NCBI GenBank assembly: GCA_964597815.1
Contig: CAZQZN010000003.1
Span: 8,519-72,518 of the forward strand
Direction: 5' to 3'
From: an uncultured bacterium
GTDB lineage: Bacteria; Margulisbacteria; WOR-1; JAKLHX01
Length of the DNA: 64,000 nt
The notes under the pieces: model-generated
Told to the model about the DNA's origin: nothing
The model's input: only the letters and a program-made list of their open reading frames with translations
Database searches by the model: none
Part shown: piece by piece, positions 37,911 through 56,291 of the stretch
How positions within the stretch are numbered: the first letter of the stretch is position 1
How the letters are laid out: the number at the start of each line of letters is the position of its first letter
Translations under genes and position numbers: made by a program

Positions 37911-37911
37911 A

Positions 37912-38490: not shown

Positions 38491-38501
38491 GGATTAAAAC
38501 A

Positions 38502-40546: not shown

Positions 40547-41704
40547 GTGAGGGATTTTAGATTTTTTTTGTCAACAGATTTGAGGTTTGGTAATAATCAA
40601 TGCTTAAAATTGCCTGATTATATAAAAGATTTAGGTCATTCTAAAATTGCTTTGATTATCGATAATGGAGTCGTAAATAACCAACAGGTCATTAAATGTA
40701 TTAATTCACTAAAAGATAATAATATTTCCTTTGATATTTATGTAAACGAATCTGTTGAGCCAACTTATGATTATCTTGAAGATTTTAGAAAAAGATTCAT
40801 TGGCAAAAGTTATGATTGTTTGGTAGGAATAGGTGGCGGAAGCACTCTCGATCTTACAAAGGGTATTGCCACACTTTTAACTAATGATGGAGAAGCTATA
40901 TCATTTAGAGGATTCCCAAAATTAAAGAACAAACCTCTTCCAATTATTGCAATTCCAACAACTGCTGGGACGGGAAGCGAAGTTACCTATAATGCTGTAT
41001 TTACGGATTCAAAAGAAAAGAAAAAACTCGGAATTAATTCCACATTAAATTTTCCATCTTTAGCTATTATTGATCCTTTGATCTATATTGGAATGCCTGA
41101 AAAAGCTGCAATTTCTTCTGGATGCGATGCTCTTGTCCATACATTAGAAAGTTATGTTCATAAAAACAATACTCCAATTTCAAGAATTTTTTCTAAAGAA
41201 GCATTCCGATTGTTATTCAATAATCTAAACAGGTTATTGGAAGATTTTAACAATACTGATATTTGGGGAGCGCTTTCATTAGGCGCTTATTTAGCAGGTA
41301 TTGCGCTTATAAATGCGGGATCTGGGCCTTCTGGCGCATTTTCTTATCCGCTTGGGGCCGTTTATAAAGTGCCACATGGATACGCTGGCGCAGTTTTTAT
41401 TTCCAAAATTACAAAAATAAATGTTGAAAAAGGATATACTGATTATGCGGATCTTTACGATTTGATAGAAGGAGCTGATAAAACTATTTCAAACGAAGAT
41501 AAAAATTTAAAGTTTGCTGTTGAGTTACAAAATTTAATGGATAAGTTAAAAGTCCCAAGAAATTTAAGGGATTTTGGTTTAAAAAAGCCTGATATTGAAT
41601 TTTTGCTGTCACAATATGATATTTTAAAAGGGGCAATTGATCAAAACCCTATTGAAATAACTAAAGAAGATTGCAAAAAAATGTTTCAAGAATTATTTGA
41701 ATAA
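40547..41704 (+). CDS. Iron-containing (group III) alcohol dehydrogenase family protein
   Basis: GGGSTLDLTKGIA and AIPTTAGTGSEVT, the metal-binding His region. GTG start. Confidence 0.75.
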   Translation: MRDFRFFLSTDLRFGNNQCLKLPDYIKDLGHSKIALIIDNGVVNNQQVIKCINSLKDNNISFDIYVNESVEPTYDYLEDFRKRFIGKSYDCLVGIGGGSTLDLTKGIATLLTNDGEAISFRGFPKLKNKPLPIIAIPTTAGTGSEVTYNAVFTDSKEKKKLGINSTLNFPSLAIIDPLIYIGMPEKAAISSGCDALVHTLESYVHKNNTPISRIFSKEAFRLLFNNLNRLLEDFNNTDIWGALSLGAYLAGIALINAGSGPSGAFSYPLGAVYKVPHGYAGAVFISKITKINVEKGYTDYADLYDLIEGADKTISNEDKNLKFAVELQNLMDKLKVPRNLRDFGLKKPDIEFLLSQYDILKGAIDQNPIEITKEDCKKMFQELFE

Positions 41705-41717
41705 AAGGAGAAAACTT

Positions 41718-42890
41718 ATGCCTGGTTGGGAACTTATAGGGAAAGAAGAAAGAGATGCTGTAAATGAAATATTTGACAATGGGGGAGTTTTATATAGATA
41801 TGGGCTAAATGATAAAAGAAAAAACATTTTTCGTGTGGATATGTTTGAAAATCAGGTTGCAGAAAAAGTTGGCACCAAACATTGTTTATGTGTAAATACT
41901 GGGACAGCGGCTGTAAAGCTAGGATTAATTGGACTTGGTGTTAAAGCCGGCGATGAAGTTATCACTCAGTCTTTTACTTTTATTGCAACAGTTGAAGCAA
42001 TTCTTGAATTGGGAGCAAAGCCAGTAATATGCGAGATTGATAAGACACTTAATATGGATCCAATTGATCTTGAAAGGAAGATTACCAAAAAGACAAAAGC
42101 AATAATTCCAGTACATATGGCTGGAGTTGCAGCAAAAATGGAGGAAATTGTAGAAATTTCAAAGAAGAATGGAATCCCAATATTAGAAGATAGTTGTCAG
42201 GCAATGGGAGGTATGTATAAAGGCAAATATTTAGGAGCCATAGGCGATGCCGGGACATATAGCCTTGATATTGGAAAAGCAATTACAACTGGTGAGGGTG
42301 GGCTTTTGGTAACAAACAATTTTGAGATATTTCGAAAGGCAAAGGAATATTCTGATCATGGACATGAAAACAACCCATCATTGCCGCGTGGAGAAGATAC
42401 AAGAACCACATGGGGATTTAATTATAAAGCTACAGAGTTTGTTGGTGCTGTTGGCATGGCACAGCTGAAAAAACTTGATTACATTATCTCTAAACAAAGA
42501 GAAAATAAAAGAAAAATTAAAGATTCTCTTAAAGATATTAAGAAAATTGAATTTAGAGAGCTTCCTGATGAAAAAGGAGATGCTGGTGATACATTGATAT
42601 TTTTTGTTGAAAACAGAGATAAAGCTTCATTATTCGCAAGAAAACTTATTTCAAAAGGCATAGGCACAAAAAATCTTCCAGACGCTATAAATTGGCATTA
42701 TGCCGGCACTTGGACTCAGGTGTTTTATGATTTTGATGAATACAAAGGTAAGGACTTGGAAAAGGTTTGGTCTCAGTCAACAGATTATTTAAGAAGAGCC
42801 ATTGCTCTTCCAATAATGGTAAATATGAGTGATGAAAGAATTGAACAGGTAATAAATATTGTAAAGGAAATCGCTAATGAGGTTTTGTAA
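41718..42890 (+). CDS. DegT/DnrJ/EryC1/StrS family PLP-dependent sugar aminotransferase
   Basis: PLP-Lys context YSLDIGKAITTGEGG. RBS aaggag. Confidence 0.8.
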   Translation: MPGWELIGKEERDAVNEIFDNGGVLYRYGLNDKRKNIFRVDMFENQVAEKVGTKHCLCVNTGTAAVKLGLIGLGVKAGDEVITQSFTFIATVEAILELGAKPVICEIDKTLNMDPIDLERKITKKTKAIIPVHMAGVAAKMEEIVEISKKNGIPILEDSCQAMGGMYKGKYLGAIGDAGTYSLDIGKAITTGEGGLLVTNNFEIFRKAKEYSDHGHENNPSLPRGEDTRTTWGFNYKATEFVGAVGMAQLKKLDYIISKQRENKRKIKDSLKDIKKIEFRELPDEKGDAGDTLIFFVENRDKASLFARKLISKGIGTKNLPDAINWHYAGTWTQVFYDFDEYKGKDLEKVWSQSTDYLRRAIALPIMVNMSDERIEQVINIVKEIANEVL

Positions 42891-43532
42891 ATGAACAAAT
42901 TGAGTTTTCTTGGTGTTATCCCAGCACGAGGCGGAAGCAAGGGGATACCAAAGAAAAATATTAAAATAATAGCGGGGAAACCTCTTATTGCATGGACAAT
43001 AGAATCAGCAAAAAAATCAAAACTGTTGGATCATTTTGTTGTTTCTACTGAGGATGCTGAGATTGCTCAAATTTCTAGAAGCTATGGTGCGGAAGTGATT
43101 GACAGGCCATTTGAACTTGCAACCGATGAAGCAACAACCATTTCTGTGCTTCAACATGTTCTTACAAAGATTGAATCTGAAAACATTGTTCTGCTTCAGC
43201 CCACTTCTCCTGTTAGAGATATTGATTTGATTGATCAATGCATCAAAAAATTTGACTTTACAAAAGCCGACAATCTTGCAACTGGATTTGTTTGCAAATT
43301 GTTTGAATATGGGGCATATACTCAAAGGAGACAGGACTTAAATGGTTTTTTTCATGATGATGGCAATGTTTATGTAGTAAAATCAGATCTTATCAAAAAA
43401 GGAACTTTGTATGGAGAAAATGTTGAACGCCTTGAAATTTCAAAAGAGCAAAATTTTGAAATTGATGATGAATTTGATTTTTGGTTGAACGAACAAATAC
43501 TGCTAAAAAGGATAAGCGAGGGTAGGCAATAG
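42891..43532 (+). CDS. Acylneuraminate cytidylyltransferase family (CMP-nonulosonate synthetase, NeuA/LegF-like)
   Basis: GVIPARGGSKGIPKKNIKIIAGKPLIAWTIESA. 213 aa. Confidence 0.8.
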   Translation: MNKLSFLGVIPARGGSKGIPKKNIKIIAGKPLIAWTIESAKKSKLLDHFVVSTEDAEIAQISRSYGAEVIDRPFELATDEATTISVLQHVLTKIESENIVLLQPTSPVRDIDLIDQCIKKFDFTKADNLATGFVCKLFEYGAYTQRRQDLNGFFHDDGNVYVVKSDLIKKGTLYGENVERLEISKEQNFEIDDEFDFWLNEQILLKRISEGRQ

Positions 43533-43611: not shown

Positions 43612-44652
43612 ATGGAAATTAAGATAAACAATAAAAAAATCGGCAAATACAACCCCGTTTTTATCATCGCTGAAGCTGGTGTGAACCATAATGGCAGCTT
43701 AAAATTGGCAATGAAAATGGCTGATGCTGCCAAAGATGCCGGTGCAGATGCGATTAAGTTTCAAACATTTAAAACGGAAGAACTCGTAACCCAAATGGCT
43801 CCAAAAGCGAATTACCAAAAAAAAACTGTACCGGGCAAATCACAATTTGAGATGCTTAAGAACCTTGAATTATCACAAAATGATTTTAAGAAATTATTTG
43901 AGTACTGCAATAGAAAAAAAATTATTTTTTTGTCAACTCCGTTTGATTTTGAAAGTGCTGAATTTTTGAATAAATTAGATGTACCAGCTTTCAAAATTAG
44001 CTCTGGAGATTTAACTAATATTCCTCTCTTATTACAAATAGCAAAATACAAAAAACCAATAATTTTATCAACAGGAATGTCGACGCTTACTGAAATAACA
44101 GATGCTGTCAAAATAATTTATTCTACTGGCAATAAAAAATTGGTTTTGCTTCACTGTACTTCAAACTATCCAACTAAATTTGAAGATGTTAATTTGCGAG
44201 CAATGGATACCATAAGAAAAAATTTCAATACACTAGTTGGATATTCAGATCATACTGAAGGAATTGAGATAGCAATTGCGGCTGTGGCCATGGGGGCAAG
44301 TTTATTGGAAAAACATTTTACTTTGGACAAAACTTTGCCGGGGCCGGATCATAAAGCATCTTTGGAACCACAAGAGTTTATGAAAATGGTTAAAGCCATA
44401 AGGAATGTTGAAATATCTTTTGGAAACGGGATAAAGAAACCGGAAAGGTCTGAAATGGAAATTAGAAGGATAGCTCGCAAAAGTATAGTAGCGGCAGTAA
44501 ATATTCCAAAAGGAACAAGATTAACAAAAAATATGCTTGCCATAAAACGGCCGGGGGCGGGGATTGAGCCAAAGTATTTAGAGCAATTAATCAACCGAAA
44601 AGCTAAGATCAATATTAAGAAAGATCAAGTTTTGACTTGGGATTTGTTATGA
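43612..44652 (+). CDS. Nonulosonic acid synthase (NeuB/LegI/PseI family) with C-terminal SAF domain
   Basis: FIIAEAGVNHNG, HCTSNYP, SAF domain at the C-terminus. Confidence 0.85.
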   Translation: MEIKINNKKIGKYNPVFIIAEAGVNHNGSLKLAMKMADAAKDAGADAIKFQTFKTEELVTQMAPKANYQKKTVPGKSQFEMLKNLELSQNDFKKLFEYCNRKKIIFLSTPFDFESAEFLNKLDVPAFKISSGDLTNIPLLLQIAKYKKPIILSTGMSTLTEITDAVKIIYSTGNKKLVLLHCTSNYPTKFEDVNLRAMDTIRKNFNTLVGYSDHTEGIEIAIAAVAMGASLLEKHFTLDKTLPGPDHKASLEPQEFMKMVKAIRNVEISFGNGIKKPERSEMEIRRIARKSIVAAVNIPKGTRLTKNMLAIKRPGAGIEPKYLEQLINRKAKINIKKDQVLTWDLL

Positions 44653-45797
44653 AACGAAAAGTATGTGTTATTACTGGAACTAGGGCAGATTATGGAATCC
44701 TTAATCCTGTAATGCATGCTATAAGGAATAGTAAAAATTTAAGTTTATACATTATAGCAACATGTATGCATCTTATGAGGGAATTTGGTTTTACGATTAG
44801 AGAAATTGAAAGAGATGGATTTAATATTTATGAAGGAGTAGATATTTCTTATAAGGAAGATAGCGGAGAAGCAATGGCTTATTCTATCGGTAAAGCAACC
44901 TGTGCCTTTTCTAGAAGTCTTGCTAGGCTTAAGCCAGATATTGTAATTGTTTTGGGTGATCGAGGAGAAATGCTTGCTGTTGCAATTGCGTCAAATTATC
45001 TTGGCATTCCTGTTGCTCATATTCATGGGGGCGAGCAATCTGGGCATGTCGATGGGATTTTGCGCCACGCTATTACTAAATTAGCACACATTCATTTTCC
45101 AGCGACAGAAAGCGCAAAAAAAAGAATAATTAGGCTTGGTGAAGATCCTAAAAAAATTTTTACTGTTGGGGCACCTTCATTAGACAGAATTTTAAATGAG
45201 AATTTGCCTAACGAGAAAAATCTTGTGAAAAAATATGGCATTAATAACAAAAAGCCTTTAGCTTTACTTGTTCAGCATCCTGTTCTAACAGAGAGCGAAA
45301 ATGCTGAAAGACAAATGAGAATTTCTTTAGAAGCCATTAAAGGTCTCAAACTACAAACCTTAGTGATTTATCCTAATGCAGATGCTGGTGGAAGACAAAT
45401 GATAAAAGTTATCAAACAATACAACAATTTTTCTTTTATAAGGTCGATTGAAAATATTCCTCACAAAGATTATTTAGGTTTAATGAGAATTGCTTCTGTT
45501 CTTGTTGGTAATTCCAGCAGTGGAATAATTGAAGCTCCTTCTTTTAAGTTGCCTGTGGTAAATATTGGAATAAGGCAAGAAGGCAGAGAGCGAAGCACAA
45601 ATGTTCTTGATGTTCCTCATGATAAAAACGCAATTGTAAGAGCCATCAAGAAAGCACTATATGATAAAAAGTTTAGAGAAAAAGTTAAAAGATGTAAAAA
45701 TCCTTATGGTGATGGGCATGCTGCGGAAAGGATTGTAAAAGTGTTAAGCACTATAAAGTTAGATAAAAATCTTTTACAAAAGCAGATTACATATTAG
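44649..45797 (+). CDS. UDP/GDP-N-acetylglucosamine 2-epimerase, hydrolysing (NeuC/LegG-like)
   Basis: VCVITGTRADYGILNPV, HIHGGE. ATGA overlap with the upstream gene. Confidence 0.8.
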   Translation: MKRKVCVITGTRADYGILNPVMHAIRNSKNLSLYIIATCMHLMREFGFTIREIERDGFNIYEGVDISYKEDSGEAMAYSIGKATCAFSRSLARLKPDIVIVLGDRGEMLAVAIASNYLGIPVAHIHGGEQSGHVDGILRHAITKLAHIHFPATESAKKRIIRLGEDPKKIFTVGAPSLDRILNENLPNEKNLVKKYGINNKKPLALLVQHPVLTESENAERQMRISLEAIKGLKLQTLVIYPNADAGGRQMIKVIKQYNNFSFIRSIENIPHKDYLGLMRIASVLVGNSSSGIIEAPSFKLPVVNIGIRQEGRERSTNVLDVPHDKNAIVRAIKKALYDKKFREKVKRCKNPYGDGHAAERIVKVLSTIKLDKNLLQKQITY

Positions 45798-45807
45798 GAG
45801 TTTAGAA

Positions 45808-46437
45808 ATGTCCAAAATTTTGATTTTTGGAGCGGGAGGGCATGGCAAGGTTGTTTTAGATATTTTGCTTGAATCAGGAGCAGATGTTTTGGGGTTTCTT
45901 GATGATGATATTTCTAAGATTGGTTCTGTTGTTAACGGCAAAAAAATTATTGGAAATTTAGAATATCTAAAAACAAATCGAAATATTGGTTTGGCATTGG
46001 GGTTGGGAAACAATAAAATTAGAGAAAAAGTTTTTAATTTTGCAAGAGAATTAGGAGTTGAAGTTGTAAATGCGATACATCCAAAAGCTGTTGTGTCAAG
46101 AAATGTAAAACTATCAAAAGGTATAGTGATTATGCCCGGTGCAGTAGTGAATACCAATGCTTTTATTGAGGATGGAGTTTGTGTTAATACTTGTGCATCT
46201 GTCGATCATGATTGTTATTTGAAAAAATTTTGTCAGATTTGGCCGGGAGCCAATTTAGCTGGTTCAGTTCAAGTGGGGGGATATTCGTATGTTGGGACCG
46301 GCGCTTCAATTATTCAAAATGTAAAAATTGGCAATAATGTTATTATTGGCGCTGGCGCGGTAGTAATTTCAGATATTCCTGATGGTGTAACAGCTGTTGG
46401 AGTTCCAGCAAGGATAATAAAGGAAAATAATATATGA
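45808..46437 (+). CDS. Hexapeptide-repeat sugar N-acetyltransferase (PglD/NeuD/LegH-like)
   Basis: N-terminal Rossmann-like ILIFGAGGHGKVVLDIL, C-terminal left-handed beta-helix repeats. Confidence 0.8.
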   Translation: MSKILIFGAGGHGKVVLDILLESGADVLGFLDDDISKIGSVVNGKKIIGNLEYLKTNRNIGLALGLGNNKIREKVFNFARELGVEVVNAIHPKAVVSRNVKLSKGIVIMPGAVVNTNAFIEDGVCVNTCASVDHDCYLKKFCQIWPGANLAGSVQVGGYSYVGTGASIIQNVKIGNNVIIGAGAVVISDIPDGVTAVGVPARIIKENNI

Positions 46438-47810
46438 GTAAAAAAAGCATTAAGGAAGCATTAGCAAAAGAGAATTCTTCAATCAAAGAAGTGATGAGGT
46501 TGATTGATCACTCAGGTCTTAGAGTTGCATTTGTTGTTGATAAGCATAATAAACTTTTGGGTGCTGTTAGCGATAGTGAAATCAGAAAAGCAATTCTCAA
46601 GGGTAAGGATGTAAAGGAACCTGTGAAAGGTATTTTAAACCCTAACCCAATTGTATTGATGGAAAAAGATTTGTCGAATGACTATCTTGTTAAAAAAACT
46701 GTTCGAAAATTACTAGAGCGTATGCCCGATAGCAGATTTATTTTAGTTTTGGACGAAAAATGTAGACCAAAGAAGTTGTTGCCTTTGTCTGAATCTCTTT
46801 ATGGCAAGAAAAAAAAGTTAATAAATAATAAAAGTGTGCTTGTAGTAGGTGGAGCTGGATATTTAGGTTCGGTATTAGCAAGAAAACTTCTTGAGAGAGG
46901 ATTTAAAGTTAAAGTTTTGGATATTCTTATGTTTGGGTCTGAATCAATAAAAGAGCTTTTGGGAAAAGAAAACTTTTCTTTAATTGAAGGTGATATGCGA
47001 AATATTTCAACCCTTACTCAAGCATTAATTGATGTTGATGCGGTTGTAAATCTTGCGGCAATTGTTGGAGATCCCGCCTGCAAAGTAACTCCTGAAGCGG
47101 CAATCGAAACCAATTATTTGGCCAACAAAACTTTGGCTGAGGCATGTAAGTATCACCAAATCAATCGATTTGTTTATGCGTCTACGTGTAGCGTTTATGG
47201 ACAAATGGATGGTGATAATGAGCTTACCGAAGAATCTCCATTAAATCCTGTGTCTTTATATGCCAGATCAAAGATTCAATCTGAAGAAGGGATATTAAGT
47301 TTGGTTGATGATAATTTTTCTCCGACAATTTTGAGGATGAGCACTTTGTACGGATATTCTCCAAGGATGCGTTTTGATTTAGTAGTTAACACAATGACCA
47401 AAACTGCGGTAATAGATAAAAGAATATATGTACACGGTGGCGGAAAACAATGGAGGCCACTTTTAAATGTGAAAGATGCGGCAAATGCTTTTATCAAATG
47501 TTTAGAAGCACCAATAAACGAAATAAGGGGGGAAGTATTCAATGTTGGTTCAAGCGCTCAAAATTATCAAATAATTGAAATTGCCAACATTGTAAAAAAA
47601 TGTATTCCCTATGCAGAAATTATCAAGGAAGGAGAATCAACAGATCCTAGAAATTACTTTGTTTCATTTTCTAAAATTGAGAAAAAACTTAACTATAAAG
47701 TTGAAAGAGGATTGGAAGAATCAATTTTGGAAATTAAAAACGCAATTGAACAAGGCATAATAAGTAATGTAAACGACTCAAAATATTACAATGTGGAGTA
47801 TAACCAATGA
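46434..47810 (+). CDS. CBS-domain-fused NAD-dependent sugar-nucleotide dehydratase/epimerase (LegB/PseB-like catalytic domain)
   Basis: N-terminal ~115 aa CBS pair, then SDR Rossmann VLVVGGAGYLGS and catalytic YARSK. Confidence 0.75.
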   Translation: MSKKSIKEALAKENSSIKEVMRLIDHSGLRVAFVVDKHNKLLGAVSDSEIRKAILKGKDVKEPVKGILNPNPIVLMEKDLSNDYLVKKTVRKLLERMPDSRFILVLDEKCRPKKLLPLSESLYGKKKKLINNKSVLVVGGAGYLGSVLARKLLERGFKVKVLDILMFGSESIKELLGKENFSLIEGDMRNISTLTQALIDVDAVVNLAAIVGDPACKVTPEAAIETNYLANKTLAEACKYHQINRFVYASTCSVYGQMDGDNELTEESPLNPVSLYARSKIQSEEGILSLVDDNFSPTILRMSTLYGYSPRMRFDLVVNTMTKTAVIDKRIYVHGGGKQWRPLLNVKDAANAFIKCLEAPINEIRGEVFNVGSSAQNYQIIEIANIVKKCIPYAEIIKEGESTDPRNYFVSFSKIEKKLNYKVERGLEESILEIKNAIEQGIISNVNDSKYYNVEYNQ

Positions 47811-49003
47811 AAAAATATTTAAGAAATAAAGACAGAATTCCAGCAATATTTGGTGGCACATCTTTTTTTAACAAAGTCATTCCTATAACTGAACCAACTA
47901 TTTCATCTATTTCTGCTTTAAAGAAGAAATATGAAGAGGTTTTAAGGAGCCGGATGATAACTAATTCTAAATATGTAAAAGAGTTTGAAAAAAATGTTGC
48001 AGAATATCTTGGTGTTAAATACGCAGTAGCAGTAAGCAGCTGTACAAGCGGGTTGATGCTTATAATAAAATCTTTAGAGTTAAAAGGCGAAGTTATACTT
48101 CCAAGTTTTACTTTTCATGCTACTGCTCATTCTGTTGTTTGGAATGGATTAAAACCTATTTTTGTTGATTGTGATCCAAAAACTTATAACATTGATCCAA
48201 AAGAAGTAGAAAAAGCTATAACAAAAAAAACGTCAGCAATTTTAGCAGTTCACCTTTTTGGAAATCCAGCAAATACTGAAGATTTGGAAAGGATCGCTAA
48301 AAAACACAATTTGAAACTTATTTTTGATGCTGCACATGCTTTTGGAGCAAAAAGGAGAGGGAAAAATGTTGGAGGTTTTGGTGACGCGGAATCTTTTAGT
48401 CTTAGCCCAACAAAACTTTTAACATCTGGAGAAGGAGGTATTATTGCAACAAATAATAAGGATTTGGCTGAAAAGTTAAAAGTTGCAAGAAATTATGGTG
48501 ATTCTGGGAATTATGACTGCGAATTTACTGGATTTAACGCAAGGATGAGTGAGTTTAACGCTATTTTGGGAATTGAGACATTAAGAATGTTAGAAAAAAA
48601 CGTAAATAGAAGGAACAAAATTGCAAATATTTATAAAAGCGAATTGTCAAAAATTCCCGGTATTTCTTTCCAATACATTTCACCAAGTGACAGAAGCACA
48701 TTTAAGGATTTTTCGATTTATATTGATGAGAATAAATTTGGAATGACGAGAGATGAATTGTATGATGCGGTTTTAAAGGAGAACATAGTTGTGAAGAAGT
48801 ATTTTTATCCTCCAGTACATTTGCAAAAGGCATATAAAAATATTAAAACATTACATAAATTGGACAATACCGAAAATATAACTAGCAGAGTTTTTAGTTT
48901 GCCTCTATATTCTCATATTGATGAAAAAACAGTAAGAAACATTTGTTTTGTTATCAAAAACATTTACGAATACAACTTGAATATAAAACGACTCAGAAAA
49001 TGA
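47807..49003 (+). CDS. DegT/DnrJ/EryC1/StrS family aminotransferase (LegC/PseC-like)
   Basis: FSLSPTKLLTSGEGG PLP-Lys motif. Confidence 0.8.
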   Translation: MKKYLRNKDRIPAIFGGTSFFNKVIPITEPTISSISALKKKYEEVLRSRMITNSKYVKEFEKNVAEYLGVKYAVAVSSCTSGLMLIIKSLELKGEVILPSFTFHATAHSVVWNGLKPIFVDCDPKTYNIDPKEVEKAITKKTSAILAVHLFGNPANTEDLERIAKKHNLKLIFDAAHAFGAKRRGKNVGGFGDAESFSLSPTKLLTSGEGGIIATNNKDLAEKLKVARNYGDSGNYDCEFTGFNARMSEFNAILGIETLRMLEKNVNRRNKIANIYKSELSKIPGISFQYISPSDRSTFKDFSIYIDENKFGMTRDELYDAVLKENIVVKKYFYPPVHLQKAYKNIKTLHKLDNTENITSRVFSLPLYSHIDEKTVRNICFVIKNIYEYNLNIKRLRK

Positions 49004-50181
49004 ATACTTTTGCTTTTATTATCCAAACTCCTTTTACAAATCGTGATTATAAAAGATTTGGTGTTGATCTGCTATTAAATAGAGGCATATCTGTTGATGT
49101 TTTAGATCTTACCAAATTAATCAATCCAAAATATCTTGATTTGTATAAAGTTGAAGATAAATCACTTTATAAAAACATTTACCAAATTTCATCCGTTGAA
49201 CAATTTGAATCTTATGTAAAAAACAACTCTGAAGTTATTTATATAAATTTTATACATGGCAATCCAAAAACATATTTCGTCTATAGAATTTATAAAAAAT
49301 ACAATTCTGTTTATGCAAGTTTTACAGCAAATGCATTACCTGCCTTTACTAAAATTATCAAAGAGCCGAAGTTAAAAAAAATATCTAAAATTTTTAATTT
49401 TCAAATTCTTAAAGAAATTATTTCCAGCAGATTATTTAAACTTGCTGACAAATTGGAGATTATTCAAAAACCCGCTTTTGTTTTGGCGGGTGGAGATGCA
49501 AAAACTAATTACCTGCCCACTCCCACAAAGAAGAGTAAAATAATCTATGCTCATACACTTGATTACGATCTATATTTGGAATATTTAAGAAAAAATAATT
49601 CAAAAGATAGTTCTCCAAAATATGCTGTATTTCTTGATGAATATCTGCCATTGCATCCGGATTTTATTGTTATTGGGGATAGGTTTAAGCCTTATAAAAA
49701 CAATCCCGAATTATATTTTAATGAGATGCGTTATATATTTGATGCTATTGAAAAAGAAATAAAGATGCCGATTGTTATCGCTGCTCATCCAAGAGCGAAA
49801 TACAAAGATACAGATAAATTTTACGGCGAAAGAGAAATTGTAAATGGGAGAACAATTGAATTGGTTGCAGGTTCGAACATTGTCTTGTTGCATTGTAGTA
49901 CATCAATCAATTTTTCGGTCTTATTCAAAAAACCTATGGTTTTTATTTTGCCAAAAGGGCTTAAAGGCGGTTTTTATGATGATCAAATCAGTGGCTTTTC
50001 CAGATTGTTTGGAGTCAATCCTTATTCTGGCAATAATAGTCCGGAGATTTCAAATTACATTGCTCGCTTTGGAAAAGCGTATGAGGAATACAAGCAAAAA
50101 TATATCAAAACCAAAAATTCTCCAGATAAGTATTTTTGGGAAATTGTAAGCGATGAGATTATTTTGAGAGATAAAAAATGA
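49000..50181 (+). CDS. Hypothetical protein. Possible GT-B-like sialyl/ulosonyl transferase, based only on conserved HP motifs.
   Basis: No recognisable family. LHPDF and AAHPRAKYKD motifs. ATGA-coupled to the preceding aminotransferase. Confidence 0.3.
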   Translation: MNTFAFIIQTPFTNRDYKRFGVDLLLNRGISVDVLDLTKLINPKYLDLYKVEDKSLYKNIYQISSVEQFESYVKNNSEVIYINFIHGNPKTYFVYRIYKKYNSVYASFTANALPAFTKIIKEPKLKKISKIFNFQILKEIISSRLFKLADKLEIIQKPAFVLAGGDAKTNYLPTPTKKSKIIYAHTLDYDLYLEYLRKNNSKDSSPKYAVFLDEYLPLHPDFIVIGDRFKPYKNNPELYFNEMRYIFDAIEKEIKMPIVIAAHPRAKYKDTDKFYGEREIVNGRTIELVAGSNIVLLHCSTSINFSVLFKKPMVFILPKGLKGGFYDDQISGFSRLFGVNPYSGNNSPEISNYIARFGKAYEEYKQKYIKTKNSPDKYFWEIVSDEIILRDKK

Positions 50182-50325
50182 GAAATGTAATTGTTTTTGA
50201 ATATGTTGATTTTTTAAATTTGTCGTTATTGTTTATTTTTGTGATTATAATAACTTTCAAAATTGCCAAGATAGTTTTTAGCTGTTTACTTTTGTATTGT
50301 TTAAAAAATATAAAAGGGGTTTTAA

Positions 50326-51867
50326 ATGCTTAAAAAGGAAGATTCCTTAAAGAAAAGATATTTTTACAAACTTATTACCAATTTTGGTGGTATGCTAATG
50401 GGTTTGATAACTGCGGGAATTACTCCTCGCGCTTTAGGCCCTGTTTCTTATGGCAACTATAGCTATTTAACAAATTTCTTCAATCAAGTTGTTAGTTTCT
50501 TAGAAATGGGAACATCTATCGGCTTTTATTCTAAATTATCGAAAAGGCAGAAAGAATCAGGATTGGTAACGTTCTACATCTATTTTTCTACCATTATCTC
50601 CATTTTAATCATACTATTTGTTTTTATTGCATACAAAACTCGAGTACATAATTTATTTTGGCCTAACCAAAATATGATTTTTGTTATTTTGGCTGCAGTC
50701 TTTGGCCTTCTAACTTGGTTTACCCAGATCCTTAACAAAATAACTGATGCTTATGGGCTAACGGTACATGCAGAAGTTATAAAACTTATTCAGCGCGCTT
50801 TGTCAGTGATGATTTTGTTGTTTTTATATTTTTGGGGGATGTTAAATCTTAGAAACTACTTTTATTTTCAGATATTTATATCGTTACTTTTAATTATAGC
50901 TTTATGGCTATTAAGCAAGCAAAAACATAGTACTATAAATTGGAAACTGAATTTTGCGCAAGTTGTTAATTATATAAAGGAATTTTATGAATATAGCCAT
51001 CCTTTGTTTGTATATGCTTTGATTGGATTAATTGTTGGTATTGTGGATCGTTGGATGCTTCAATATTTTAGCGGCAGTGAACAACAGGGTTTTTATGGAT
51101 TATCTTATACAATTGGATCTTTTTGTTTTCTCTTTACCAGTGCAATGCAACCGCTTTTAATGAGGGAATTTTCTATTTCTCATGGCAATAATGATATATT
51201 AAAAATGAGAATTCTTTTTCGAAAATATATACCGTTGCTTTATTCTATAGCTGCATATTTTTCTTGTTTTATTGCTATTCAGGCAAAAAATGTAATATAT
51301 ATTTTTGGAGGCAATAAATATGCTTCGGCTGTTTTGCCAGTTGCAATAATGGCCTTTTATCCAATTCATCAAACTTATGGCCAACTAAGCGGATCGGTGT
51401 TTTATGCCACTGAACAAACAAGGATATATAGAAACATTGGCACTTTCACTATGGTCATCGGATTAATTGTGAGTTATTTTTTGTTGGCTCCCAAAAATAT
51501 GTTTGGTCTTGAAGCTGGCGCATTTGGTCTTGCGCTAAAAATGGTGATAGTGCAATTCATAGGAGTTAACATTCAGTTGTTTTTTAATGCGAAATATTTA
51601 AACATTTCTTTTTCTAAGTATTTTTTCCATCAGATATTGTCTTTGGTGTTGCTATCATCCATTTCTTTTTTTTCATATTTCTTGATAGAATTTACCAAAC
51701 TTAACTTTTTCAATGTTTTGATAAAGTTTATTTTGTCTGGCATGATATATACAGGAATTGTAATTACGTTTGTGTTTTTTTTGCCAGAAGTGTTTGGGTT
51801 AAATAGAGCTGATGTTGGCTATATATTTGATTTGGTGATAAAAAGAAAGAAAGGAGAAAATAATTAA
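50326..51867 (+). CDS. Polysaccharide/oligosaccharide flippase (Wzx, MOP superfamily)
   Basis: 513 aa, ~12-14 TM helices, typical Wzx hydropathy. Confidence 0.75.
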   Translation: MLKKEDSLKKRYFYKLITNFGGMLMGLITAGITPRALGPVSYGNYSYLTNFFNQVVSFLEMGTSIGFYSKLSKRQKESGLVTFYIYFSTIISILIILFVFIAYKTRVHNLFWPNQNMIFVILAAVFGLLTWFTQILNKITDAYGLTVHAEVIKLIQRALSVMILLFLYFWGMLNLRNYFYFQIFISLLLIIALWLLSKQKHSTINWKLNFAQVVNYIKEFYEYSHPLFVYALIGLIVGIVDRWMLQYFSGSEQQGFYGLSYTIGSFCFLFTSAMQPLLMREFSISHGNNDILKMRILFRKYIPLLYSIAAYFSCFIAIQAKNVIYIFGGNKYASAVLPVAIMAFYPIHQTYGQLSGSVFYATEQTRIYRNIGTFTMVIGLIVSYFLLAPKNMFGLEAGAFGLALKMVIVQFIGVNIQLFFNAKYLNISFSKYFFHQILSLVLLSSISFFSYFLIEFTKLNFFNVLIKFILSGMIYTGIVITFVFFLPEVFGLNRADVGYIFDLVIKRKKGENN

Positions 51868-52625
51868 TGAACAAAATTAAATTGTTTGGTAAGAATTCTA
51901 TTGGAAGCTGGCTACAGATGCCTAACAGATATTCTGCTGAGATTATGGCAAAATCAGGATTTGACTGGCTTGCTATTGATATGGAACATGGATTAATTGA
52001 TGTGCAAAAAGCATTTGAATTGATTCAGGTAGTTGAACTTGCTGGTTCTATTCCTCTTGTGCGATTGAACGAAAATAATCCAAGCTTAATTCGCAGAGTA
52101 ATGGATGCTGGTGCAAAGGGTGTAATAGTGCCGATGGTCAATACAGCTGAAGATGCTCAAAAAGCAGTTGACGCAGTTAAATATCCTCCGGATGGGAAAA
52201 GAAGTTATGGCTTGGGACGTGCCCATGAATTTGGTAAAAATTTTTCTGAATATATCAAAACTATTAATACAGAAAGTATCGTAGTTGTTCAAATAGAACA
52301 TATCAATGCATTTTTAAATCTAGATTCAATATTAGGGGTTAAATCTATTGATGCGATAATCATTGGCCCTTATGACCTTTCGGGCTCTATGGGTATTGCT
52401 GGAAAATTTGATGATGATAAGTTTCAAGAGGCGGTCAATAAAATTATTGAAAAAGTTAAAAAACATAATATTGCTTTGGGGATACATATTGTTCACCCAA
52501 GTCTGGATGATTTAAAACAAAGAGTATCTCAAGGATTTTCTTTTATAGGATTTGGAATGGATACTATATTTTTATCAGATGGGTGTGCAAAAGCAATAAA
52601 AGAATGTAGGAAGATAATAAAATGA
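51867..52625 (+). CDS. HpcH/HpaI family class II (pyruvate/2-oxoacid) aldolase
   Basis: TIM-barrel aldolase family pattern (IGSWLQMP...AEIMAKSGFDWLAIDMEHG, GPYDLS). Confidence 0.7.
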   Translation: MNKIKLFGKNSIGSWLQMPNRYSAEIMAKSGFDWLAIDMEHGLIDVQKAFELIQVVELAGSIPLVRLNENNPSLIRRVMDAGAKGVIVPMVNTAEDAQKAVDAVKYPPDGKRSYGLGRAHEFGKNFSEYIKTINTESIVVVQIEHINAFLNLDSILGVKSIDAIIIGPYDLSGSMGIAGKFDDDKFQEAVNKIIEKVKKHNIALGIHIVHPSLDDLKQRVSQGFSFIGFGMDTIFLSDGCAKAIKECRKIIK

Positions 52626-53611
52626 AAATTTATGACCTAATGAGCCCGAAAGAAGAATATTATAAAGTTCTTAAACAAAGAGAAATAGATGGTATTGCTT
52701 TTTATGAGAAATACCATAAAGATTTTGTTTTAACAAATTGTCCCGCCTGTGGTGAAGGTGGCATTAATTCATTCGAAAAGTATGGTTTTGAACATAAAAC
52801 ATGCAAAAATTGCAAGACTCTATTTGTTTCGCCAAGACCAACAGATGAAATACTTTCCATTTATTACAATGAATATTCTGCACCTAAAATGTGGACTGAA
52901 TTATTGTTAAAAACCGATGTGCAAAGGAAAGCAATGCAATATTTGCCCAGAGTAGAAATGATAATTAATAGGATTAGAAATCTTGGAATTAATAAAATGG
53001 AAAGAGTTGTTGATCTTGGTGCTGGTTCGGGCGCTTTTTCAATCTGCTTGCAAAAATCAGGTTTTTTTGATGAAGTAATTGCTATTGATCTTTCTGAAGA
53101 GTGTGTTAAGGCTTGTCAATCCCAAGGATTAAAAACAATCCTTGGCTCTGTGGAAAATATTGAAGATGAATCGATAGATTTAATTTGCATGAATGATTTA
53201 TTTGAACATCTTTTTGATTGTTCCAAAATGCTTAGTGGGTGTTTTCGTGCGCTTAAAAAAAATGGGTTTATTTCAATTGCAACTCCAAATGGGGAGGGTT
53301 TTGATTTCAAAATAATGAAAAAGAATACAGTTAATATTACTCCACCAGAACATTTAAACTATTTTAATCCTATTTCAATGGAGATTTCTCTATCTAAAGC
53401 AGGATTTATGCCAATTTTGGTTGAAACCCCCGGCAAACTTGATGTTGAAATTGTATTGAGAGAGAAATTTTCTGGTTTTTCTTTATCGGAAAGAAACGAA
53501 TATATAAATTATCTATTAGAACAAGAAGAGCAAGTCATAAACAATTTTCAAGAATTTCTTTCTAAAAACAAACTTTCAAGCCATATGTTTGCAATGGCTC
53601 AAAAGAAATGA
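52622..53611 (+). CDS. Class I SAM-dependent methyltransferase with N-terminal Cys4 zinc ribbon (paralogue A)
   Basis: CPACGEG...CKNCKTLFVSPRP, SAM motif VVDLGAGSGAF, C-terminal SSHMFAMAQKK. Confidence 0.65.
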   Translation: MKIYDLMSPKEEYYKVLKQREIDGIAFYEKYHKDFVLTNCPACGEGGINSFEKYGFEHKTCKNCKTLFVSPRPTDEILSIYYNEYSAPKMWTELLLKTDVQRKAMQYLPRVEMIINRIRNLGINKMERVVDLGAGSGAFSICLQKSGFFDEVIAIDLSEECVKACQSQGLKTILGSVENIEDESIDLICMNDLFEHLFDCSKMLSGCFRALKKNGFISIATPNGEGFDFKIMKKNTVNITPPEHLNYFNPISMEISLSKAGFMPILVETPGKLDVEIVLREKFSGFSLSERNEYINYLLEQEEQVINNFQEFLSKNKLSSHMFAMAQKK

Positions 53612-53627
53612 AAAGAGGAGAAGAAAA

Positions 53628-54404
53628 ATGAAAATAATCGGTATTATTCCTGCGCGTATGGCTTCAAGTAGATTTCCGGGGAAACCATTAGCAAAGATAT
53701 TTGGAATACCTATGATCGGCCATGTTTATTTTAGAAGCAAAATGTGCAAGTTGCTAGATGAAGTATATATTGCAACCTGCGATAAAGAAATTGTTGAATA
53801 CTGTAATTTTATTGGTGCAAAATCTGTAATGACCAAGGACACTCATGAGAGGGCATCTGATAGGACTGCTGAAGCAATGCTAATTATAGAAAAAGAAATT
53901 GGGGAAAAAATAGATATAGTGGTTATGATTCAAGGTGATGAACCTTTGATCTATCCCGAAATGATTAGTGAAGCAGTTAGACCGCTAATTAAAGATGTAC
54001 AAGTCTTGGTCTCAAATCTAATGGCTCCTATAACAAAGGAGGAACAGGACGACCCTAATGAGGTAAAAGTGGTATTTGACAGAAATGATTATGCCCTATA
54101 TTTTTCAAGGGAACCGATACCTTCATGGAAAAAAGGTGCGAAAGAAGTCCCAATGTATAAACAAATTTGCATTATTCCTTTTAGGAGGGATTTTCTTTTG
54201 AAATTTAATGAGCTTATGCCTACTCCGCTTGAAATAGTAGAATCTATCGATATGCTTAGGATATTAGAACATGGTTATAAAGTAAAACTTGTTAGGACCA
54301 ATTTTCTAACTTACAGTGTGGATACTTTACAGGATTTGATGGATGTTGAAGAATTGATGAAAAATGATAATCTTTTTGAAAAATATAAAGGCCAAAACAA
54401 ATGA
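53628..54404 (+). CDS. CMP-ulosonate synthetase of the KdsB (CMP-Kdo synthetase) family
   Basis: MKIIGIIPARMASSRFPGKPLAKIFGIPMI and the QGDEPL motif. RBS agaggag. Confidence 0.75.
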   Translation: MKIIGIIPARMASSRFPGKPLAKIFGIPMIGHVYFRSKMCKLLDEVYIATCDKEIVEYCNFIGAKSVMTKDTHERASDRTAEAMLIIEKEIGEKIDIVVMIQGDEPLIYPEMISEAVRPLIKDVQVLVSNLMAPITKEEQDDPNEVKVVFDRNDYALYFSREPIPSWKKGAKEVPMYKQICIIPFRRDFLLKFNELMPTPLEIVESIDMLRILEHGYKVKLVRTNFLTYSVDTLQDLMDVEELMKNDNLFEKYKGQNK

Positions 54405-55384
54405 AAGAAGAAGAAATAAGAAAGCGCAAAATATTTAACAAATATCTTGAACTAGTTAAAGAAGACATTGATATGCTTTTTAAAGAAAAGAGCTTATTTG
54501 AAGAAATATCATGTCCAGCATGTGAGTCAAAAGAATATTTATTTCAATTTGAAAAATATGGGTTTAAATATGTGCTTTGCAATAAATGTGGTACTTTGTT
54601 TGTTAATCCAAGACCTACATTAAAATCCCTTACAGATTTTTATTCTTCTTCAAAATCAGGAGATTTTTGGGTGAAAGAATTTTTTCTTCCTGTGATAGAT
54701 GTGCGCAGGGAAAAAATATTTAAACCTAGAGCTGAATTAGTTTGTAATAAACTAAAAGAACCTAGTGGTTATGTGTGTGATGTTGGAGCAGGATTTGGAA
54801 TATTTCTTGAAGAGATTTCAAAATTATGGACAAACGCAAAAATGGTGGCAATTGAACCATCCATCCAAATGGCCGAAATATGCAGAGAAAAAGGTTTTGA
54901 AGTAATACCAAAAGCAGTTGAAGATGTTATAGGTTTGGATGGCAAATTTTCAATAATAACAGCGTTTGAACTTTTTGAACATCTTCAAAATCCAAGTGTA
55001 TTTCTTGAAAAGATATATTCTCTGCTTTCTAAAGATGGTAGTTTGATTATATCAACACTTAATGGAGAAGGTTTTGATATACAAATACTTTGGGAAAGCT
55101 CAAAAAGTGTGTTCCCTCCTCATCATCTAAATTTTTTAAACCCAGATTCCATTAGAATATTACTAGAGAGAAAAGGTTTTGTTGTAGAATCAATAACAAC
55201 TCCTGGACAACTTGATTGGGATATTGTAGAAGGTGCTTATCAAAAGGACGGAATTGATCCGGGAAGATTATGGAAATTAGTATCAAAAAAGGGAAGCAAA
55301 CAGGCAAAAGAAAAACTTCAAGAATGGATATCTCAAAATAATTTTAGTTCACATATGATGATATTTGCAAGAAAGGGAATATAG
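54401..55384 (+). CDS. Class I SAM-dependent methyltransferase with N-terminal Cys4 zinc ribbon (paralogue B)
   Basis: CPACESKEY...CNKCGTLFVNPRP, SAM motif VCDVGAGFGIF, C-terminal SSHMMIFARKG. Confidence 0.65.
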   Translation: MKEEEIRKRKIFNKYLELVKEDIDMLFKEKSLFEEISCPACESKEYLFQFEKYGFKYVLCNKCGTLFVNPRPTLKSLTDFYSSSKSGDFWVKEFFLPVIDVRREKIFKPRAELVCNKLKEPSGYVCDVGAGFGIFLEEISKLWTNAKMVAIEPSIQMAEICREKGFEVIPKAVEDVIGLDGKFSIITAFELFEHLQNPSVFLEKIYSLLSKDGSLIISTLNGEGFDIQILWESSKSVFPPHHLNFLNPDSIRILLERKGFVVESITTPGQLDWDIVEGAYQKDGIDPGRLWKLVSKKGSKQAKEKLQEWISQNNFSSHMMIFARKGI

Positions 55385-55385
55385 A

Positions 55386-56288
55386 ATGAAAGTTTTTATT
55401 TCTACAACTACATTTGCACAATATGATGAATTGCCATTGCAATTATTGATGGAAAAAGGGATCGAGTATCAAATAAATCCTTTACACAAAAAACTTACAA
55501 AAGAAGAATTATTATCTTTTGCAGCTAATGTGGAAGGACTCATTGCTGGCACTGAATCTCTATCTTATGATGTTTTGAAAGAATTAAAAAACTTAAAAGT
55601 CATTTCAAGATGTGGCACGGGGCTTGACAATGTTGATCTTAAAAGTGCTGATAAACTTGGTATTAAAGTTTTTAACACACCAGATGCGCCCACAGATGCA
55701 GTTGCGGAATTAACATTAGGATTAATGCTTGATTGCTTGCGTTTTATATCGAAAGCAGATCGCAACATTAGATCTGGTGCATGGGTTAAGCCAATGGGGA
55801 ATCTGCTGAAAGATAAAATAGTTGGTATAATTGGATATGGAAGGATAGGTAAAGCAGTTGCAAAATTGGTGCAATCTTTTGGTGCCAAGATAATAGTGTT
55901 TGATATAGCAAAAAATTCTGATGGTAAACTATTTGTTTCTTTTGACCAACTATTGAAAAGTTCTGATATTATAACGTTGCATATTCCAGCAATTGATAAA
56001 AAAATACTTATTGATGATAATGCTATTTCAAATATGAAACAAGGTTCTTTTTTGATCAATACTTCGAGAGGAGGCCTCGTTGACGAAGATGCGCTTTATA
56101 ATGCACTTAAAACAGGTAAATTGGCAGGAGCAGGAATAGATACTTTTAACCAAGAACCTTATAAGGGAAAACTTGTTGAAATTGAAAATGTGGTTTTGAC
56201 ATCACATATTGGTTCTTATGCAAAGGAGTCAAGAATAGAAATGGAAAAACAAGCGGTTAAAAATTTGCTTAAAGGATTGGGGGTATAA
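55386..56288 (+). CDS. D-isomer-specific 2-hydroxyacid dehydrogenase (PGDH/GDH-like)
   Basis: NAD motif GIIGYGRIGKAV, catalytic R...E...H region. Confidence 0.8.
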   Translation: MKVFISTTTFAQYDELPLQLLMEKGIEYQINPLHKKLTKEELLSFAANVEGLIAGTESLSYDVLKELKNLKVISRCGTGLDNVDLKSADKLGIKVFNTPDAPTDAVAELTLGLMLDCLRFISKADRNIRSGAWVKPMGNLLKDKIVGIIGYGRIGKAVAKLVQSFGAKIIVFDIAKNSDGKLFVSFDQLLKSSDIITLHIPAIDKKILIDDNAISNMKQGSFLINTSRGGLVDEDALYNALKTGKLAGAGIDTFNQEPYKGKLVEIENVVLTSHIGSYAKESRIEMEKQAVKNLLKGLGV

Positions 56289-56291
56289 AAA

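Follow-up and report, generated by a model that had tools for sequence, protein, structure and literature searches.

The window analysed here is a 64,000-nucleotide stretch of contig CAZQZN010000003.1 (assembly GCA_964597815.1) from an uncultured bacterium of the Margulisbacteria, and the gene under study is an open reading frame (ORF) that directly follows a set of nonulosonate biosynthesis genes and encodes a protein of 393 residues. An earlier note on this DNA proposed the protein as a candidate new sialyl- or legionaminyl-transferase, and our analysis supports this proposal as the best-supported hypothesis, on the grounds of predicted fold and genomic context. The reading frame is uninterrupted over 393 codons plus stop. 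Its ATG (49000-49002) overlaps the TGA (49001-49003) of a DegT/DnrJ/EryC1 aminotransferase gene (47807-49003), an ATGA arrangement by which the two genes are translationally coupled, and a flippase gene recognised by its Polysacc_synt match begins 144 bp after the target; both statements of the earlier note on these neighbours hold. A longer, TTG-initiated frame runs from 48943; homologues start at the position of the ATG instead. A scan of 47700-50500 showed nothing that resembles a terminator, and promoter-like sites were not in excess. The genes from the start of the nonulosonate set to the flippase are as follows.

40547-42890, forward strand: Fe-dependent alcohol dehydrogenase (Fe-ADH) and DegT aminotransferase pair, the first two of eight genes upstream of the target
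42891-43532, forward strand: CMP-nonulosonate synthetase (CTP_transf_3; Pfam E 3.9e-24; closest NCBIfam model PseF, 135 bits)
43612-44652, forward strand: NeuB-type nonulosonate synthase (TIGR03569, 490 bits, above cut-off)
44649-45797, forward strand: NeuC-type hydrolysing UDP-sugar 2-epimerase (TIGR03568, 462 bits, above cut-off)
45808-46437, forward strand: NeuD/PglD-type N-acetyltransferase (TIGR03570, 222 bits, above cut-off)
46434-47810, forward strand: sugar 4,6-dehydratase-like enzyme with a CBS domain and a short-chain dehydrogenase/reductase (SDR) domain (Pfam Epimerase E 1.2e-47 and CBS; LegB 99 bits, below cut-off)
47807-49003, forward strand: DegT-family sugar aminotransferase (PF01041, E 2.9e-109; DesI, PseC and LegC models below their cut-offs)
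49000-49003, forward strand: ATGA start/stop overlap of the aminotransferase gene and the target, read from the sequence
49000-50181, forward strand: the target ORF, whose family is called family A1 here
50326-51867, forward strand: Wzx-like MOP flippase (Pfam Polysacc_synt, E 4.8e-13)

The eight genes 5′ of the target, in the order Fe-ADH, DegT, cytidylyltransferase, NeuB, NeuC, NeuD/PglD, CBS-SDR and second DegT, make up a complete CMP-nonulosonate pathway. Their dehydratase, aminotransferase, acetyltransferase, hydrolysing 2-epimerase, synthase and CMP-synthetase match the established route to legionaminic acid, and neither PseG nor PseH is among the genes of the locus, indicating that the product is most probably a legionaminic-type 5,7-diamino-nonulosonate. 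The earlier note called the coupled aminotransferase LegC-like; its membership of the DegT family is clear, and the closer label is not borne out by the family models. Pfam and NCBIfam searches of the glycan locus in the window (approximately 33.9-64 kb) revealed no gene of the GT38, GT42, GT52, GT80, Maf or KpsS type. The only other glycosyltransferase candidates there are two GT2 genes (34823 and 62798) and a 590-residue ORF at 58452. A complete CMP-nonulosonate pathway that has no recognised transferase supports the target as the missing function.

The target protein had no match in Pfam or NCBIfam at E ≤ 0.1. Against PDB sequences it gave none as a single sequence, and a 49-sequence family profile gave two chance-level matches only, neither of them a sialyltransferase. 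These searches of Pfam, NCBIfam and PDB sequences confirm the absence of a recognised family, as stated in the earlier note; it is the family that is new, since both the fold and the chemistry considered below are of known kinds. A confident match to an unrelated family, which the earlier note had named as evidence that would speak against a transferase, did not appear in Pfam and NCBIfam scans of the target and 142 relatives. Homologues are numerous: a word-indexed search returned 313, and a hidden Markov model (HMM) search of 1.84 billion cluster representatives (50% identity) returned 4,847 at E ≤ 1e-3 and 2,841 at E ≤ 1e-30. With so many homologues, the target ORF is a real gene and not a chance reading frame. 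All homologues named in their source are 'hypothetical' or 'uncharacterised', except one fusion that is named for its methyltransferase half, and none of the 313 from the word search carries a precomputed Pfam domain.

Family A1 is spread over both bacteria and archaea. A scan of GTDB species genomes confirmed 146 relatives, none with more than 43% identity to the target, so that the genome of the window was not among the matches; the closest relative of the target (53% identity) is from Margulisiibacteriota. This relative points to a Margulisiibacteriota/Saganbacteria (WOR-1) metagenome-assembled genome as the probable source of the window, and so do the best named TrpE homologues, nearly all of which come from these groups. 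Bacterial hosts in the GTDB scan include Omnitrophota, Elusimicrobiota, Margulisiibacteriota, Syntrophia, Desulfovibrionaceae and Bacteroidales, together with Rhodospirillales (Magnetospirillum, Phaeospirillum), Syntrophomonas wolfei and Capnocytophaga bilenii, and archaeal hosts include Methanolobus, Methanoregula, Methanoperedens, Methanomicrobium, Woesearchaeota and Thermoplasmatales. The family is also present in cultured organisms, namely Methanolobus psychrotolerans, Syntrophomonas wolfei subsp. methylbutyratica, Paramagnetospirillum caucaseum, Phaeospirillum tilakii and Capnocytophaga bilenii. A tblastn search of a plasmid collection with the target gave no match. One homologue, in the Olavius algarvensis Delta 4 endosymbiont (L048:10001-11164), has an in-frame stop codon, which reflects either a pseudogene or a sequencing error.

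Genomic context also bears on what the family does. ORFs in 80 homologous loci were classed by phmmer with the window's proteins, and neighbours within 10 kb were counted in a full-flank subset of 50 GTDB-species loci, each of which extends 8 kb or more to both sides. NeuB was found in 44 of these 50 loci and a CTP_transf_3 cytidylyltransferase likewise in 44, with one or the other present in 49. NeuB-family genes number at most a few per genome, so that co-location within 10 kb by chance would be expected at approximately 1%, as a rule-of-thumb estimate. Across the 80 loci, homologues of the CMP-synthetase (59), NeuB (55), NeuC (40) and Wzx (21) recur in the order NeuB-NeuC-(CBS-SDR)-CMP synthetase-target-Wzx, and in 17 of the 80 a Wzx homologue lies no more than 500 bp downstream of the family A1 gene. 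Five contigs that were looked up separately, with precomputed Pfam annotation, have NeuB and CTP_transf_3 in all cases, and on a 3.4-Mb Methanolobus contig the cluster is located approximately 5 kb from AglB/STT3. The co-location of family A1 with NeuB and CMP-activating genes is conserved in bacteria and archaea. Co-occurrence with neuB-like genes, a check that the earlier note had put forward, therefore came out in its favour across many phyla and several archaeal orders.

Three fusion proteins were found among the top 150 representatives, two with an N-terminal class I methyltransferase and one, P0289, with a C-terminal Wzx (the three are P0183, P0261 and P0289). These partners fit a late step of glycan assembly at the membrane face.

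An AlphaFold2 model of the target, built with the 49-sequence alignment, has a mean pLDDT of 92.2 and a pTM of 0.91 and consists of two alpha/beta blocks (residues ~1-200 and 205-378) plus a last helix. A Foldseek search of the PDB with this model gave 187 matches at E ≤ 1e-3, and the best 50 of the 187, from which identities were taken, are all GT-B proteins, either GT1 transferases (GtfB at 5e-9, OleD, CalG3, and plant and bacterial UDP-glycosyltransferases [UGTs]) or UDP-GlcNAc 2-epimerases. The C-terminal domain was also modelled alone (pLDDT 91), because domain orientation might affect the full-length search; Foldseek again retrieved generic GT-B C-domains, from GT1 enzymes, epimerases and the heptosyltransferase WaaC (GT9). 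The target is thus confidently predicted to have a GT-B fold, with two Rossmann-like domains and a C-terminal helix; the structure prediction suggested in the earlier note did not yield the non-glycosyltransferase fold that the note had named as contrary evidence. The GT-B fold alone is no proof of glycosyl transfer, because it also houses epimerases and hydrolases, and the predicted structure points to neither the sialyltransferase nor the Kdo-transferase families in particular.

Conservation was read from 49- and 142-sequence alignments of family A1. Four residues, D188, D213, P264 and R278, are invariant in the 142 sequences. Residues kept in at least 90% of them comprise R15, D16, R19, G21, H185, Y189 and D190 in the N-domain, H219, D221, Y239, H263, R265 and Y268 in the C-domain, and further T285, L288, H298, S300, T301, K311, P312, I369, K370 and W380. 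The LHPDF and AAHPRAKY sequences to which the earlier note had drawn attention are indeed present (residues 218-222 and 261-268), and both HP dipeptides are conserved across the 142 homologues. The parts of the gene that these observations bring out are listed below.

49000-49599, forward strand: N-terminal Rossmann-like domain, residues ~1-200, putative acceptor side (model secondary structure, pLDDT)
49042-49062, forward strand: RDYKRFG, residues 15-21, loop after N-domain strand 1 (alignment; model with strand 3-8 and helix 14-19)
49552-49569, forward strand: HTLDYD, residues 185-190, end of the last N-domain strand (alignment, with D188 invariant; model)
49630-49662, forward strand: FLDEYLPLHPD, residues 211-221, end of C-domain strand 1 and the first HP (D213 invariant; H219 and D221 in at least 90%)
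49777-49803, forward strand: IAAHPRAKY, residues 260-268, with the second HP, immediately behind C-domain strand 2 (P264 invariant; hhalign)
49852-49911, forward strand: TxEL (285-288) and HxSTS(I)N (298-304), strand-to-helix turn (alignment; HxSTS between strand 294-297 and helix 303-308)

In the model, H263-P264 directly follow strand 258-262, and the conserved motifs are predicted to lie at strand ends and helix starts of both domains, where GT-B active sites are found. By analogy with other GT-B enzymes, the TxEL/HxSTS turn may be one that contacts the phosphate of the donor, and HTLDYD is a candidate general base. An insertion in the N-domain (residues 112-152) is variable, modelled with lower confidence and basic, with a median net charge of +7 across family A1; the target has no transmembrane or hydrophobic segment (maximum 19-residue Kyte-Doolittle mean 1.22). 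The insertion may serve as a membrane-association patch, and a basic insertion in a protein that has no transmembrane segment is what would be expected of a peripheral enzyme acting on a lipid-linked acceptor.

How family A1 relates to the known transferase families was approached in several ways. The 142 relatives were scanned individually against Pfam and NCBIfam. GT52 (PF07922), matched by six of the 142 (best E 0.0083, all far below the gathering score), was the most recurrent weak Pfam match; Epimerase_2 (PF02350) was matched by four (best E 0.069) and Polysialyltransferase (PF07388) by one (E 0.026). Among the NCBIfam models, the LIC12162-family transferase (TIGR04331) was matched by five members (best E 4.7e-4), the TIGR04372 glycosyltransferase by five (best E 0.062), TIGR04326 weakly by four (best E 0.029) and the BFO_1060 family (NF046086) by two (best E 2.6e-4, or approximately 0.04 when corrected for 142 queries); the target itself matched none of TIGR04331, TIGR04326 and NF046086, and no family-model match was reported for it at E ≤ 0.1. 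SocA antitoxin and DnaD also recur among the 142 as unrelated chance matches, and neither Capsule_synth (PF05159) nor Glyphos_transf matched any member. The matches to glycan families, individually marginal, seem to point in one direction.

Profile comparison with hhalign set 49- and 274-sequence family A1 profiles against a 44-sequence GT52 profile and a 43-sequence NeuC profile. The Escherichia coli references were NeuS, NeuE, KpsS and KpsC of the K1 locus, the GT52 genes of O104 and O131, and two unannotated O-antigen proteins; NeuS, KpsS and KpsC entered as single sequences, which have little power. None of the scores was significant: P was 0.0055-0.0087 (probability 5-7%) against GT52, 0.07-0.15 against NeuS, 0.005 over 32-33 residues against KpsS, 0.6-0.7 against KpsC, and 0.005-0.015 over 35-38 residues against NeuC, the last reflecting a generic SS-helix turn only. 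The other E. coli references gave no significant score against the 274-sequence profile, and no GT80 sialyltransferase was present in the profile search of PDB sequences or among the listed Foldseek matches. The earlier note had suggested a check against GT52, GT38, GT107 and GT80; it returned no significant link, and Foldseek was led by GT1 enzymes and epimerases. Judged by sequence, family A1 falls outside GT38, GT52, GT80 and GT107 on the membership criteria that we tested.

The earlier note had also likened the two HP motifs to those of sialyltransferases and KpsC/KpsS-type enzymes. The histidine of the sialyltransferase HP motif contacts the phosphate of CMP, and its mutation raises the Km for CMP-Neu5Ac; in GT38, GT52 and GT80, HP is accompanied by a D/E-D/E-G motif upstream (PMC2169525). 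The likeness stands for AAHPR, which aligns in hhalign with the HPR(E) of GT52, the KPHPK of NeuS and the HP of the PFTS family described below; it does not stand for LHPDF, which has no counterpart to a sialyltransferase HP motif. The arrangement of motifs around AAHPR is also similar, with VVIAAHPRSxYE, 22 residues, TxEL, 15 residues and STS in family A1, and ivIKxHPRExTxY, 22 residues, PxE, 16 residues and FS in GT52.

GT52, which includes Neisseria Lst/NST and the O-antigen sialyltransferases of E. coli O104 and O131, is a GT-B family whose genes, like those of family A1, adjoin neuDBAC and wzx, and the two share the order and spacing of HPR(E/S)xxxY, 22 residues to xEL and 15-16 to an S-rich turn. 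However, the invariant EDG and the TQPLSE of GT52 have no counterpart in family A1, the N-domains are unrelated, and GT52 proteins are approximately 80 residues shorter. A further comparison is with Tanf_01245 and TFUB4_00887 of Tannerella forsythia, genetically proven transferases of Pse and Leg derivatives in a protein O-glycan; they are predicted to be GT-B/TagB-like, have an HP motif, are encoded with nonulosonate genes and attach the nonulosonate that terminates a lipid-linked glycan (PMC5420450). Their family is BFO_1060 (NF046086), which the two family A1 members mentioned above match far below the trusted score, and they carry DXD and D/E-D/E-G motifs, whereas family A1 has neither. 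The retaining ulosonate transferases of GT99, GT107, GT118 and GT140 (WbbB, KpsC/KpsS, Acinetobacter baumannii KpsS1 and KrkA) also use CMP-activated ulosonic acids and have GT-B-derived folds with an HP-type motif; none of their structures is among the listed Foldseek matches of the target. New ulosonate transferase families such as GT118 and GT140 were still being defined in 2024-2026 (PMC12887879). The best structural neighbours, the GT1 enzymes (GtfB, OleD, CalG3, YojK) and UDP-GlcNAc 2-epimerases (Foldseek E 5e-9 to 1e-7, probability 1.0), differ in that identity to the target is 8-16%, TM-scores are 0.40-0.53 and no sequence-profile signal is seen; they use NDP-sugars and occur in other genomic contexts.

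The two unannotated E. coli proteins used as references, from O145 (L088:14531-15787) and strain TCM_B_2 (L089:15885-16946), are 'hypothetical proteins' of O-antigen clusters in which neuDBAC is present and no sialyltransferase is annotated. Neither has a Pfam family, and they carry KEHPKA or KHPRDDY followed by an S-rich turn, PSTLAY or YSSLAY. Both are probably unclassified sialyltransferases.

The only family with a significant sequence link to family A1 is that of PFTS_polysacc (PF27878), TIGR04326 (LIC13510 family) and TIGR04396 ('surface carbohydrate biosynthesis protein'). The hhalign probability is 84-90% (E 2e-6 to 7.5e-6) over approximately 150 columns of the C-terminal domain only, and in the alignment the HP motifs of the two families coincide, as does the S/T-rich turn; over the full length, there is no match between family A1 and PFTS, TIGR04326 or TIGR04396. 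Like family A1, PFTS proteins occur in nonulosonate or surface-glycan loci (PMC6679464), but they are approximately 590 residues long compared with 393, the N-terminal halves are unrelated, and their function is likewise uncharacterised. The PFTS profile is equally similar to NeuC (88%), and the link is therefore one at the level of the GT-B superfamily. In a Herbaspirillum strain, LIC12162-family and 'surface carbohydrate biosynthesis' genes are found downstream of neu genes (PMC6679464); a literature search with the family identifiers gave one incidental mention only, that of the LIC12162 family at this position.

The window itself contains a PFTS protein:

58452-60224, forward strand: 590-residue PFTS protein (no local Pfam match; sub-threshold TIGR04326, 84 bits, and TIGR04396, 33 bits)

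Homologues of this protein carry the recent Pfam family PF27878, and it has RLHPD and HAGTTAALEA motifs of its own. Sequence comparison suggests that it is a remote GT-B relative of family A1 and NeuC and a second candidate transferase in the locus. Paralogy with the target was considered and rejected: BLASTP and profile-versus-single-sequence comparisons gave no match, and the C-terminal link emerged only with a 14-sequence PFTS profile. The gene belongs to a module that begins directly after Wzx (51867-60224, forward strand). Besides the 590-residue unassigned protein, this module encodes an HpcH/HpaI pyruvate aldolase, a pair of zinc-ribbon methyltransferases, a further CTP_transf_3 cytidylyltransferase, a D-2-hydroxyacid dehydrogenase, an SDR, an HAD phosphatase and a PF04199 cyclase. 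These genes are found again, in unchanged order, in Methanolobus, Syntrophomonas wolfei, an uncultured archaeon and Elusimicrobia. The module appears to be an aldolase-based pathway, independent of NeuB, that leads to a different CMP-activated acidic sugar and has a transferase of its own.

Taken together, these data favour the view that the target represents a new GT-B family by which a CMP-activated nonulosonate of the legionaminic type is transferred to a lipid-linked glycan ahead of the flipping step, to which we assign a probability of roughly 0.6. This view draws on fold and genomic context and not on family membership. Several observations weigh against it. NeuB is not within 10 kb in six of the 50 full-flank loci. 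The Foldseek TM-scores are modest (0.40-0.53), and among the 50 matches listed, for the whole protein or the C-domain, there is no sialyl-, Kdo- or Pse-transferase structure. The D/E-D/E-G motif, seen as an EDG triplet that is 95-100% conserved in GT52, is missing from the 49- and 142-sequence alignments, where the nearest conserved acidic stretches are HTLDYD and FLDEY. A QHP also occurs where a strand ends in the NeuC of the window, so that an HP dipeptide is not specific to transferases. The hhalign scores against GT52, NeuS, KpsS and KpsC are no better than that against NeuC, and the single hmmscan matches, at E of approximately 1e-2 to 1e-4 over 142 queries, become marginal once multiple testing is allowed for. 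Each of the three fusion proteins is a singleton cluster, possibly an assembly or gene-calling artefact, and we have given the fusion evidence less weight for this reason.

The strongest competing explanation, although an unlikely one, is a GT-B glycosyltransferase with an ordinary NDP-sugar donor, which builds the residue that later receives the nonulosonate, the true transferase being another protein, such as the 590-residue PFTS protein or one encoded outside the window. The best structural neighbours are UDP/TDP-sugar GT1 enzymes, a significant sequence link to a CMP-dependent transferase family is absent, and the locus encodes a second uncharacterised GT-B protein that likewise carries an HP motif. 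Against this, the only constant partners of the family across phyla and both domains of life are NeuB and the cytidylyltransferase, with no NDP-sugar pathway equally constant; PFTS homologues occur in only 11 of the 80 loci, mostly with the HpcH aldolase module; and the HPR/xEL/STS layout matches that of GT52. Somewhat less probable again is a non-transferase GT-B enzyme of nonulosonate biosynthesis that acts on a nucleotide sugar, for example a NeuC- or PseG-like hydrolase/epimerase or a CMP-sugar hydrolase. A bona fide NeuC is already present in the window and in 40 of the 80 related loci, and the family A1 gene usually stands between those for the CMP synthetase and Wzx, past the point at which the donor is activated. 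These facts have to be set against the top TM-scores, which come from UDP-GlcNAc 2-epimerases (0.48-0.53 by either normalisation), the weak Epimerase_2 match in four of the 142 members and the HP of NeuC-type enzymes. The comparison with the NeuC profile, confined to a generic turn, and the Wzx fusion, which if real fits a transferase at the membrane face, also speak against this reading. The target is not itself a NeuC, given the non-significant hhalign score and the true NeuC in the locus.

That the target serves the product of the downstream HpcH module (HpcH aldolase, second cytidylyltransferase, 2-hydroxyacid dehydrogenase and others, 51867-58451) and not that of NeuB is improbable. The module does lie no more than 1.7 kb downstream, and its gene order is shared by Methanolobus, Syntrophomonas and several metagenome-assembled genomes (MAGs), but an HpcH homologue is present in only 14 of the 80 family loci, compared with 55 for NeuB and 59 for the NeuA-like synthetase, and the module has a candidate transferase of its own in the PFTS protein. 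Least probable of all, and very nearly dismissed in our judgement, is a phosphotransferase of the TagF/TagB kind, with a CDP-activated polyol phosphate as its donor. In favour of it, enzymes of the TagF type are GT-B-like, work with a cytidine nucleotide and depend on catalytic histidines. A TagB-like domain has moreover been reported in the Tannerella transferases (PMC5420450). Yet Glyphos_transf matched none of the 142 members, Pfam and NCBIfam searches of the window showed no synthase of CDP-glycerol or CDP-ribitol of the TagD type, and no TagF structure is among the listed Foldseek matches.

Returning to the transfer of a nonulosonate, the data show the gene, its conservation, the GT-B fold and the association with NeuB and CMP-synthetase genes; we infer the donor, the acceptor, the residue roles and the stereochemical outcome, and a possible course of the reaction is as follows. 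The target would be a soluble GT-B glycosyltransferase, peripherally associated with the membrane. Its C-terminal Rossmann domain would bind the CMP-nonulosonic acid, in this locus most likely the legionaminic-type 5,7-diamino-tetradeoxy-nonulosonate made by the eight upstream genes, with H263-P264-R265, R278, S300-T301 and K311 holding the CMP phosphate and the sugar carboxylate. The N-domain would present the acceptor through the RDYxRFG loop, the HTLDYD motif and the basic insertion, the acceptor being an oligosaccharide linked to undecaprenyl phosphate (dolichyl phosphate in archaea) at the cytoplasmic face of the membrane. Once the nonulosonate has been added, the adjacent Wzx would flip the finished unit, and in archaea AglB-dependent N-glycosylation may follow the flipping.

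Other genes of the locus may bear on the sugars that are made. The Fe-ADH/DegT pair recurs beside the CMP synthetase and family A1, with Fe-ADH homologues in 15 and DegT in 10 of the 80 loci (loci with the pair are L012, L015, L021, L022, L024, L033, L038 and L042), and it may provide an unusual N-acyl or side-chain modification of the nonulosonate. Further upstream, a GHMP kinase, an NTP-transferase, a SIS isomerase and an HAD phosphatase lie together at 35637-39221 (forward strand), a set that resembles the NDP-heptose module GmhA/HddA/HddC/GmhB. A transaldolase/FSA-family gene and an FAD oxidoreductase (39268-40371) are located 5′ of the nonulosonate genes.

Transferases of pseudaminic, legionaminic and related nonulosonates are scarce and known from only a handful of organisms (PMC5420450). 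On evidence that we consider evenly balanced, family A1 may constitute a new family at the CAZy level and the main legionaminic-type transferase of uncultivated phyla (Omnitrophota, Elusimicrobiota, Margulisiibacteriota), syntrophs, and methanogenic and other archaea, with an HPR/STS donor site and a base (HTLDYD) unlike those of GT38, GT52 and GT80, capping archaeal N-glycans and Wzx-dependent bacterial glycans. If the proposed function is correct, it would overturn nothing; it would fill a recognised gap in nonulosonate transferases, suggest a function that can be tested for several thousand 'hypothetical proteins' (the 4,847 clusters formed at 50% identity) and provide new biocatalysts for legionaminic-acid glycosides. 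It would also supply the step by which many uncultivated bacteria, and archaea as well, come to carry sugars resembling sialic acid on their surfaces, in Methanolobus near AglB.

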